Shown here: one piece after another, positions 25,135 through 27,450 of the stretch
Numbering within the stretch: position 1 is the stretch's first letter
Layout of the letters: each line of letters starts with the position of its first letter
DNA from: a bacterium
Lineage (GTDB): Archaea; Thermoplasmatota; E2; JACPAO01; JAHFTW01
Reading direction: 5' to 3'
NCBI GenBank assembly: GCA_040390065.1
Contig: JAZJZE010000009.1
Location: 192,001-256,000, forward strand
DNA: 64,000 nucleotides
Position numbers and translations under genes: made by a program
Notes under the pieces: model-generated
What the model saw: the letters and a program-made list of their open reading frames with translations, nothing else
Databases searched by the model: none
Told to the model about the DNA's origin: nothing

Positions 25135-25610
25135 TAGTAGGGTGGGACGTCGGCTTCACCGCGCGCCGTCGGGAAGCCGTCGAAGACGATGCGGGTGAGG
25201 TGCGGCGCCCCCCCCGGCGTCGTGAAGCGCACGGTCAAGTCCGACCCAGAGTTGGCCCCCACGGAGGATGGACCCGCCAGGTCGCCAAACGGGACGCCGC
25301 CGCCCTGCGCGTCTGCCGCGCTCCAGGCCAGCGTGGTCTCGACGGTGACGTTGTTGGGGTTGTCCATGTGCAGGCGCACGACGTGGCATTCCTCGTGGAA
25401 GTCCGTGACCCCGTCCGGGCAGCGGCCGGCTTCGATGTGGGCGTCGCGCACTGAGAGCGTCACAGGGTGCGGGGGGAGATGGACGTCGGGCAAGGCCGGC
25501 AGGCCGTTCAGGCGCGATGGGTTCGCGGGACTGGAGCACCCGGCAAGGAGAGTGAAGGCAACGGCGGCCACGGCGACGACGACTCGCACGAGTCGACGAC
25601 GCACGTGCAC
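25134..25610 (-). CDS. Hypothetical lipoprotein
   Basis: LLAGC lipobox; GTG start inferred. Confidence 0.65.
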   Translation of the reverse strand: MHVRRRLVRVVVAVAAVAFTLLAGCSSPANPSRLNGLPALPDVHLPPHPVTLSVRDAHIEAGRCPDGVTDFHEECHVVRLHMDNPNNVTVETTLAWSAADAQGGGVPFGDLAGPSSVGANSGSDLTVRFTTPGGAPHLTRIVFDGFPTARGEADVPPY

Positions 25611-25677
25611 CGACTTGAGGGTTTGGACGAAGTTCGGCGGCCTCGACCGATTCCTGCACCGGGCCGGCCTCGTCTTG

Positions 25678-25802
25678 CTCCGCCGACGCCCTCCGTGATA
25701 GGGCCGCGTGGCCGGCTTCCGCGCCGGCTTAACCACTGAGTTCACTGAGCGCACTGAACGCGCCGCGTCCGTAGTTCAGTGAATTCAGTGCGTTCAGTGG
25801 TT
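25678..25802. repeat. Repeat family A: palindrome with (CACTGAnnn)x3 / (TTCAGTGnn)x3 arms
   Basis: Arms at 25731-25759 and 25774-25802; homologous to 3-90. Confidence 0.85.
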
Positions 25803-25984
25803 CGCCCCTCGGCCGAGTGTGGGGGGCCGGGGAGAACAGGAGCCTTGCGCAGAGAAGGGGAATGAGTTCGTGTTCTCCGTTTGGCTCCCGTTCTCCCAGG
25901 CCGCCCATGCCTGAAAGACAGCGAAGTCGCCGAAGCCTGGAAAGGTCGCGTTCCGGTTTTTTCCGTGGCTTCCTCGTCTTTCAG

Positions 25985-26144
25985 GCCCCCCGGCGGCCCT
26001 CGCCATCGCTGCGCTCGGCTCGCCAAGCCCTCGCTTCACCGCGGCTTCGCCGTCGGCGTGCTCGCCCCGGCCGGGGGCTGGCAGGCCATCGGTTGCATCT
26101 GTTGCATCGGTTGACCCGGCGTGGACGTCGCCGCCGTCGGAGGA
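25985..26144. repeat. Dispersed repeat family B, copy 1
   Basis: Shares cccccggcggccc, gctcgccccggccgggggc and gtcgccgccgtcggagga, in order, with 49390-49536. Confidence 0.8.
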
Positions 26145-26185
26145 GATTGGGGACGGGTCGGCGCCTAGGAGACGCAGGGGGAATC

Positions 26186-26219
26186 CTACGCGCCCTTCAG
26201 CAGGTTGTTCGCGATGACC
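26186..26219 (-). repeat. Duplicate of the acyl-CoA dehydrogenase 3' end
   Basis: Encodes [10 protein letters not shown] like 26305-26338; 28/34 nt identical. Confidence 0.9.
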
Positions 26220-26304
26220 CCGCGGCCCGGCAAGCCGAGCCGCAGGGATTCCGCGGCCGAGCCGGCGGCATCGCGACCAATTCTCTGCGGGCGACTCGCT
26301 TCGC

Positions 26305-27450
26305 TCATGCGCCCTTGAGAAGATTGTTCGCGATGACCATCCTCTGGATCTCGCTCGTCCCCTCGTAGATCTCCGTGATCTTGGCGTCACGGAAGGCCCG
26401 CTCGACGGGGTAATCCTTCGTGTAGCCGTTGCCGCCGTGCACCTGGACGGCCTCCGTCGCAGTCCACATCGCCGTCTCCGAGGCGTACACCTTGGCCATG
26501 GAGGCCTCCTTGGAGTACGGCTTCTTCTCGTCCTTGAGGCGGGCTGCGCGATGGATGAGAAGGCGGGCGGCGTCGATGCGCGTCGCCATGTCGGCGATCT
26601 TCCATTGGATGGCCTGGTTGGAGCCGATGGGTTTGCCGAATTGGCGCCGCTGCTGCGCGTACGACAGGCTGGCCTCGTAGGCCCCGACGGCGATGCCGAG
26701 GGCTTGGCTTGCGATGCCGAGACGGCCGCCGTCGAGCGTCTTCATGGCGACCTTGAAGCCCTCGCCGACGGGCCCGAGGACGTTCTCGTCCGGCACCTGC
26801 ACGTTTTCGAAGAACAGCGGACAGCAGGGCGCGGCGCGGATGCCGAGTTTGTCCTCGGGTTTGCCGATGCGGAAACCGGGCGTGCCCTTCTCCACGAGGA
26901 ACGCGGTCTGGCCCTTGTGCCCGGCCGCCTTGTCCGTCTGGGCGAAGACGACGTACGTCTCGGCGAGTCCCGCATTCGTGATGAAGAGTTTCTGGCCGTT
27001 GAGGACGTAGCCGCGGCCGCTCTTGGTGGCCGTCGTCTGCATCGACACCACGTCGCTGCCGGCGTTGGGTTCCGTGAGTCCGTACGCGCCGAGCTTGCGG
27101 CCGGCGAGCATGGGCTTGAGGAAGCGTTCATGCTGGTCCGCGTTGCCGTACGTGTAGAGGGGCCAGCCGGACAAGGAATTGTTGACGGAGACGATGACGC
27201 CGGTCGAGGCGCAGACGCGCGACAGCTCCTCGATGGCGATGCAGTACGACACCATGTCCGTGCCCGCGCCGCCGGCCTCTTCGGGGAAATTCATTCCCAT
27301 GATGCCGAGGGCGCCAAGCTCGTGCGCCAACTCGGGTGGCCACCGGTGGGTCTCGTCCATCTCCTTGGCGATGGGGCGCAAGCGGCGCTCGGCGAACTCC
27401 CGCACGGTCTGGCGGATGAGGGCGTGCTCCGAGGTGGGCTCCAGGTCCAC
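26305..27450 (-). CDS. Acyl-CoA dehydrogenase (short/branched-chain type)
   Basis: [45 protein letters not shown]. Confidence 0.96.

Follow-up and report, generated by a model that had tools for sequence, protein, structure and literature searches.

Why should a conserved gene carry its last codons twice, with only silent differences between the copies? The window analysed here, a stretch of 64,000 nucleotides from an uncultured Thermoplasmatota archaeon, raises this question at an acyl-CoA dehydrogenase (ACAD) gene. The genome (G000) is a metagenome-assembled 2.68-Mb assembly that is 89% complete. The gene (26305-27450, minus strand) was identified from the ORF list, its translation and Pfam; the 381-residue product matches the families Acyl-CoA_dh_N, Acyl-CoA_dh_M and Acyl-CoA_dh_1 with E values of 4e-57 to 3e-29, and orthologs are found in 13 of the 13 genomes of the genus. 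A sequence-only reading of this DNA had reported that the last ten codons and the stop codon occur twice, 119 bp apart, with six silent differences, which our analysis confirms. It had proposed that an inserted element brought a recoded replacement end and displaced the native one, and that the 85 bp between the copies are the remainder of a larger integrative element. Here we describe the locus as a member of a family of tiny (about 45-230 nt) gene-end hairpin cassettes in this uncultured Thermoplasmatota genus and family.

Structure of the doubled ACAD gene end

The working end of the gene (c1; 26305-26338) consists of the last ten codons and TGA, and its direct repeat, a spare and apparently displaced end (c2; 26186-26219), of ten codons and TAG; these and all other parts of the cassette lie on the minus strand. 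The copies are 34 nt long and lie 119 nt apart from start to start (the repeat search returned 30 nt at 90% identity). Of the six bases that differ between c1 and c2, four give the synonymous codon pairs AAT/AAC, CTT/CTG, CTC/CTG and GCA/GCG, and the other two distinguish TGA from TAG. These differences do not have the signature of a diversity-generating retroelement, as they are not confined to template adenines (T, T, C and A in c1 against C, G, G and G in c2 at the sense positions). The period of 119 is of the form 3n+2 i.e. c2 is out of frame with c1. Over 33 nt, c2 is identical to the working end of the gene in a congener (G001).

Between the two copies the sequence is organised as two hairpins. 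The first has c1 as its 5' arm, and its 3' arm (M; 26267-26293), in the middle of the 85-nt spacer, is an imperfect inverted copy of the ACAD end that was identified by inverted-repeat pairs and that pairs with c1 in the RNA fold. The apex (26295-26307) holds the TGA stop codon followed by GCGAAGCGAG, which contains the motif GCG[A/C]AGCG. The second hairpin (H; 26218-26247) is GC-rich, with a 13-bp stem and a CTTG loop in the folds, and abuts c2. Under DNA parameters the 160-nt ACAD region folds at -45.5 kcal/mol (z = -3.56), and none of 200 shuffled sequences was as stable. In this fold M pairs with c2 rather than with c1, so both pairings are possible. The duplex between c1 and its own spacer has an energy of -31.9 kcal/mol and ranks first of 18, the mean against the spacers from the other 17 loci being -20.4 kcal/mol. 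The reverse complement of the spacer aligns to c1 with a score of 26 and to c2 with a score of 24.

The spacer matches only itself in the genome. A search of positions 25600-26500 against Rfam 15 (E <= 1) returned no family, the sub-threshold miRNA-like matches all lying on another hairpin (25815-25914). No recombinase or cargo is present in the 85-nt insert, in which the sole ORF is a 40-codon frame ending in c2 that has no Pfam match. This frame is opened by an ATG overlapping the ACAD stop codon (ATGA), covers 26186-26308 on the minus strand, and may be annotated by gene callers.

Two other features lie beyond the spare end. Positions 25731-25802 contain a 29-nt inverted repeat of TTCAGTG/CACTGAA heptads, which might be a protein-binding site or a terminator. 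A dispersed repeat of approximately 250-300 nt (25860-26143) lies 43 nt behind c2 and has 48 matches in the 2.68-Mb genome, with copies on contigs C1, C2, C5, C6, C8, C9, C11, C17, C21 and others. It has a conserved core with a long hairpin, GCCTGAAAGAC...GTCTTTCAGGC, and in an alignment it carries a GAGCG[A/C]AGCGATGGC motif that is the same as in the cassette apexes. A copy of this type of repeat is also located behind the ACAD gene of the sister genome G004, and Rfam assigns the repeat no more than miRNA-like matches below threshold.

A genome-wide family of cassettes

The sequence-only reading had recommended a genome scan for gene ends that recur within 500 bp. We searched the 2632 coding-like ORFs of the genome for cases in which the last eight residues plus stop recur at most 500 nt downstream, and obtained 18 matches at 16 loci, compared with none after permutation of the peptides and the regions downstream. 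Of the 16 loci, one is a natural P0/P1 pair and one a 32-nt tandem array. A looser scan and a shared hairpin added more cassette loci, including two tRNA 3' halves. An archaeal P0/P1 stalk tail was seen in this genome; the array (contig C9, stop index 305284, plus strand) re-encodes SRKATRTV and a stop codon three times with synonymous differences, and its period is much shorter than, and different from, that of the hairpin cassettes.

According to Pfam, the protein hosts in this genome are SecY, S7, S15, a NusA-like KH protein, ThyX, GAPDH, a SIS-domain enzyme, an isocitrate/isopropylmalate dehydrogenase (IDH), an aminotransferase and ACAD; together with the tRNAs, they are mostly essential genes. 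The cassettes have a common order: working gene end, stop codon in a hairpin loop, inverted gene-end arm, GC hairpin and spare end. Their spacers are 44-173 nt long, ORF-less and mostly single-copy in the genome, and this is the complete, normal form at more than 12 loci, which contradicts the proposal that the 85 bp of the ACAD locus are left over from something larger. The data demonstrate both the architecture and its recurrence at essential genes and tRNAs.

The apex is usually a small stable hairpin e.g. GCG-CAG-CGC or GC-GAA-GC. Within the 10 nt that follow a stop codon, the motif GCG[A/C]AGCG was counted 12 times, compared with 2-10 times in other 10-nt bins (genome average 5.3), and six of these 12 post-stop motifs sit at loci with a re-copied gene end. 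In the ACAD cassettes that have the motif, the working stop is TGA and overlaps it. Gene-end hairpins without a second copy showed no genome-wide enrichment (29 vs 24 in the control at a score of at least 10).

One variant of the H hairpin is found about 5-6 times in the genome, five of them directly before a spare end (two at SIS, two at GAPDH and one at a tRNA). The same variant is present only once among 31 related genomes, and the exact 28-nt hairpin gave no match in 185,579 species genomes, the own genome being excluded from this search. Some pairs of c1 and c2 within the genome are nearly identical (GAPDH 40/40, ThyX 57/58, C19 73/74). At the SIS gene (contig C5 from 75131 onward; L144/L245) two cassettes are stacked, with nearly identical H hairpins; the outermost, third copy has changed from RRHATLE to RRRAPVE, yet its synonymous codons are those of the working end and not those of the middle copy.

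Linkage of the inverted arm to the working end

When c1 of each of 18 loci was paired with its own spacer and with the 17 others, its own gave the strongest pairing in 10 cases (permutation p < 1e-4). The reverse complement of the spacer fits c1 better than c2 in 19 of 22 cassettes and worse in one, with two ties. Since the inverted copy in the spacer tracks c1, we conclude that c1, the apex and M form a linked unit, although M could track c1 by templated palindrome correction instead of co-inheritance. Only the comparison of alignment scores was retained for this purpose; a per-site count of bases in M complementing c1 or c2 (73 vs 1) was discarded as biased by its alignment to c1, as a control in which c2 served as the alignment target gave 14 vs 26.

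Independent events at shared genes in related genomes

Four of the 13 genus genomes have an ACAD cassette, with the same left boundary in all four. The carriers are scattered on a poorly resolved gene tree (4 changes), each beside a cassette-free species. In G006 there are two near-identical 123-nt units and then a third copy, degenerate through V>A and a 1-nt deletion, which continues straight into the sequence that follows the native stop codon in G005, where there is a conserved downstream gene. A simple tandem duplication, a whole-unit repeat of the kind that occurs in G006, was rejected for the window, where the sequence after c2 is unrelated to the spacer.

Could the doubled end at ACAD be an assembly artefact, joining two strain variants of the gene end? 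The genome is metagenome-assembled and strain variants would indeed show silent differences. However, we regard this as scarcely credible: four species whose genomes were assembled separately all have the structure at ACAD, many more have it at other genes, and the longest stretch of identity between the copies, 15 bases, is too short for k-mers to have joined them. A contig made by a second assembler (Logan, from the probable source run) crosses positions 26095-26750 with no differences, although it comes from the same data and is thus not independent support. Among sequencing runs, the probable source run was the only one to contain the stretch, and no RNA run with it is listed. No joint skipping the 119-nt unit was reported in this source-run assembly, which consists of contigs and would let rare empty alleles escape.

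The relatives also bear on whether c2 is translated, as a small ORF coupled through the ATGA overlap, by readthrough or by frameshifting, and is kept by selection on the peptide. This would agree with the 40-codon frame that starts at the ACAD stop and ends in c2, and with c2 being in frame with c1 in G001 and G006. However, the period modulo 3 is 2, 0, 0 and 2 in the four ACAD species, with no conserved start codon or ORF; at other loci a stop interrupts the frame ahead of c2 (VAG*KGLFGF), copies further out decay, tRNA ends share the architecture, and the 40-residue product has no Pfam match. Translation of c2 is therefore extremely improbable as the reason for its presence.

The same picture of separate events emerges at other genes. 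A spare S7 end is present at 6 of 28 loci in three genera, and as the repeats (8-16 codons) and the periods (94-198 nt) vary, these are separate events; in G011 the copies are stacked. Among the loci compared, a re-copied end was found for SecY (3/11), NusA (3/11), the aminotransferase (1/11), SIS (2/6), IDH (2/5) and GAPDH (2/5). Independent events across species are thus demonstrated. In one case a cassette is common to two species: that of NusA in the own genome and in the sister G004 matches at 26 of 27 positions in c1, 84 of 101 in the spacer and 23 of 24 in c2, compared with 68% at third codon positions, and the homology ends exactly at the c2 stop, identity downstream being 45%. The ACAD spacers of the four species are 51-67% identical compared with 67-73% at third codon positions, a relation that is uninformative on vertical versus horizontal descent.

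From metagenome contigs 80 ACAD loci were kept, of which one is a close relative (L057, 90% identical) and lacks a second copy; the rest are ACADs of approximately 55% identity. The ACAD gene of G008 (L012) ends in TGA followed by GCGCAGC, like the cassette apexes, has no second copy within 400 nt, and may have lost its relic. At the SIS end of G010 (L223) a unit of 52 nt, made up of the gene end and a 31-nt spacer, is repeated twice head to tail, with three differences in 18 coding bases, all at third positions, and three or four in the spacer.

Identity between congeners is strongly mosaic along the S7/S12 region (L150-L163) and along ACAD (L009-L021). Between the own genome and G004 it is 100% in one 90-nt window and 67-80% in neighbouring windows. 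This suggests that short-tract recombination is very frequent within the genus.

Silent divergence of the copies and decay of outer copies

We compared c1 and c2 in 29 innermost pairs (357 codons) by the Nei-Gojobori method and counted 117 synonymous and 29 non-synonymous differences (pS 0.45, pN 0.036), a count that enters switches between the TCN and AGY codons of serine and the CGN and AGR codons of arginine, as well as boundary codons, as non-synonymous. Duplication in situ followed by free drift of c2 would be expected to give approximately 184 non-synonymous changes; decay after a local duplication is therefore ruled out. Switches between six-fold codon families that leave the peptide unchanged were found in S7 (own genome, G004, G011 and G042), SecY (G004), SIS (own genome) and GAPDH (G003). 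The pS between c1 and c2 is comparable to the level between species in the genus (third-position identity 67-73%), and over all pairs the divergence forms a continuum from zero to near saturation.

Copies lying further out in stacks are decayed, and some single relics also have disruptive changes. Such relics include the third ACAD copy of G006, the third S7 copy of G011 (R>G), the second and third SecY copies of G006, and, in the own genome, the third copies at GAPDH (R>T) and SIS (three of seven residues changed), together with W>S and W>stop at IDH. These data demonstrate both that c1 and c2 have diverged synonymously and that copies further out decay. Together, the two findings give c1 and c2 the look of a pair of alleles, each of them functional until recently, the spare one having decayed only briefly since. 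This part of the earlier proposal stands: the copies behave as two once-functional alleles of which one was displaced, and in G006 the outermost degenerate copy is the one that joins the conserved downstream gene.

Which copy is resident?

Several comparisons with relatives bear on which of the copies is native. Six of nine cassette-free congener ACAD genes end in TAG, as c2 does; most of these relatives do not, then, natively end in the TGA version, which would have spoken against the sequence-only reading. At the sites where the ACAD copies differ, G004 matches c1 at one and c2 at about 3-4. For the aminotransferase, c2 agrees with G004 at five of eight differing sites, including Lys for Arg, and c1 at two. 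The c2 copies of S7 in the own genome and in G004 both read AGC...TAA, while their c1 copies differ, and the c1 copies of S7 and SecY in the own genome come very close to the native ends of G003 and G008. Codon usage shows no asymmetry: the orphan ACAD copy has the commoner codon in three of four cases, in keeping with the earlier remark that its codons are host-like, but over all loci the commoner codon is in c1 and in c2 equally often (25:25). The aminotransferase, S7 and the ACAD TAG are hints that c2 may be the resident end; the other data are neutral or opposite.

In SecY and the aminotransferase the first seven codons of the repeat are identical and every difference lies 3' of them, which is the pattern that would be expected from a crossover near the left edge. 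In ACAD the sliding-window identity among congeners is mosaic, with no clear recombination breakpoint. For S7, NusA and the aminotransferase, the sequence downstream is not shared between congeners, and for SecY only the next gene was matched, at 317-1297 nt. The analysis found neither a donor nor an enzyme, and no empty allele within the same sample.

Comparison with described systems

The closest precedents are systems in which an insertion supplies a new C-terminus. In the account of e14 in PMC13626634, the working end and a displaced C-terminal fragment of E. coli icd flank the insert, with mostly synonymous differences between them. The ACAD locus resembles this in having an insert at the 3' end of a conserved gene with a direct repeat of the gene end on both sides. 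Unlike e14, described there as a 15-kb element with its own recombinase and site-specific excision, the ACAD insert is 85 nt long and gene-less, and contains an inverted copy of its target. That IDH is among the cassette hosts, as icd is the host of e14, is probably a coincidence.

The resemblance raises the question of whether each cassette is the scar of a conventional element of the e14/icd type that arrived with a replacement gene end and whose recombinase and cargo have since disappeared. The direct repeat with silent differences, like the icd/icdC pair described around e14 (PMC13626634), is what such a scar would show, and six tyrosine-recombinase genes are present elsewhere in the genome. 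These genes are, however, unlinked to the cassette loci, and the inserts have no ORF. In addition, the inserts at more than 12 loci all measure only 44-173 nt, share one hairpin architecture and contain an inverted copy specific to the target, which independent deletions would not give each time. The identical block within the repeat is 15 nt in ACAD, 23 nt in SecY and 20 nt in the aminotransferase, and the NusA and S7 pairs have no identical core. We therefore consider an integrative-element scar very unlikely.

A second precedent is provided by fungal mitochondrial endonuclease ORFs (Allomyces atp6; Glomus atp6, atp9, cox2 and nad3), which, according to PMC3630166, insert a foreign in-frame C-terminus and leave the native one downstream; the native copy matches close relatives, protein identity is kept at 64-81% DNA identity, and horizontal transfer was inferred. 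The cassettes are similar in that the C-terminus is duplicated and the protein conserved while the DNA has diverged, as the pS and pN of the 29 pairs indicate. They differ in being ORF-less, 10-20 times smaller and equipped with an inverted-gene-end hairpin, whereas in the fungal elements an ORF of about 1 kb, for a LAGLIDADG or GIY-YIG endonuclease, is described as driving mobility (PMC3630166). No homing-endonuclease ORF lies between the C-termini in any of the 44-173-nt spacers. The closest described systems (e14/icd and the fungal ORFs) each carry an enzyme gene, and the cassettes are without one.

Small ORF-less hairpin modules are themselves known. Mitochondrial hairpin and double-hairpin elements and yeast GC clusters are GC-rich modules of this kind that invade intergenic regions and sometimes genes, with an unknown mechanism, and PMC2800124 presents them as sequence families, with no flanking duplications. 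The archaeal cassettes share the small size, GC-richness and lack of ORFs, but unlike those elements their spacers are mostly unique and have a second copy of the gene end at their border. REP/RAYT and MITE-type elements, including intragenic palindromic elements, are short palindromic extragenic modules at gene ends. The cassettes differ from these in having no terminal inverted repeats with a short target duplication, and in that the hairpin arm is copied from the target itself. At ACAD, the features of a MITE are absent in that the spacer is single-copy, the flanking repeat is 34 nt of gene end, and the inverted repeat pairs the spacer with the gene and not the ends of the insert with each other. 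A search for the Y1 (HUH) transposase (PF01797) gave no matches in the 89%-complete own genome but detected the family in 6 of the 14 reference genomes used as a control. In searches of the PMC and bioRxiv literature we found no description of archaeal ORF-less hairpin cassettes with re-copied gene ends, which is no proof of absence.

A possible mechanism

We propose, with belief and doubt about equally balanced, that ORF-less hairpin cassettes replace conserved gene ends by recombination with diverged alleles, displacing the previous end. A cassette consists of c1 (the working last 6-21 codons), the stop codon in the loop of a long imperfect hairpin, M, and one or more H hairpins; directly behind H, c2 would be the earlier gene end, now untranslated. 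The unit c1-loop-M-H would come from another lineage, entering when a diverged allele of the gene recombines with the resident one. In doing so it would replace the gene end and shift the resident end outward, where it would decay and eventually be lost, and repeated rounds would produce stacks. As a guess, a cassette might first form at a new gene by fold-back (snap-back) copying from the stable post-stop mini-hairpin during break repair.

Not all of the data fit allele import alone. The H variant that occurs 5-6 times in the own genome and once in 31 relatives points to spread or homogenisation inside the genome. The near-identical pairs and the tandem units (ACAD in G006, SIS in G010) show that duplication in situ occurs as well.

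These two observations raise the further question of whether the cassettes originate entirely in situ. In that case c1-M-H-c2 would be made on the spot, with c1 equal to c2, when a hairpin causes a copying error, be it a switch of template, a slip, or the insertion of a small hairpin element that duplicates a long target. The silent differences would arise later, either through overwriting of c1, with M re-templated, by the homologous recombination that is very frequent in this genus, or through conversion exposing c2 to selection. Besides the near-identical pairs, head-to-tail units and shared H variant, the strongly mosaic identity of congener genes and the continuous range of copy divergence are what this origin would lead one to expect. 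It has difficulty with four other results. Cassette-free donors offer no homology to the right of c1, where the downstream flanks are not conserved, and overwriting the whole of c1 would therefore be hard. The differences in SecY and the aminotransferase lie at the 3' side, the reverse of what a conversion tract running in from the gene would give. M matches c1 and not the supposedly older c2 (19 of 22). Finally, c1 and c2 of SIS differ at 6 of 24 bases, compared with 2 of 28 for their H hairpins. An origin wholly in situ, the main alternative to our proposal, is thus possible, but on balance we consider it unlikely.

Replacement of gene ends by recombination with diverged alleles can also be taken one step further. 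The cassettes may be self-templating mobile DNA, in which a gene-less hairpin would fold back and copy the end of whichever conserved gene it has landed on, obtain its targeting arm in this way, and then spread between lineages by homologous end replacement, with the displaced end as a second homology arm. We put this forward as a speculation that is more probably wrong than right by some way.

Implications

If the self-templating reading is true, essential genes and tRNAs carry a selfish hairpin and are never broken by it. For genome annotation, spare ends yield spurious small ORFs and apparent 'tandem stop' structures. The cassettes also raise a mechanistic question that is testable in vitro, i.e. 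how an inverted and a direct copy of the target come to lie around a hairpin. They would provide a countable marker of recombination between species, in which each spare end is a dated fossil of an earlier allele. If the cassettes are as they seem, essential archaeal genes (SecY, ribosomal proteins, NusA and tRNAs) routinely have their last codons exchanged for those of other lineages via an insert too small to code, which would be a so far undescribed route of micro-scale gene flow and 3'-UTR turnover.
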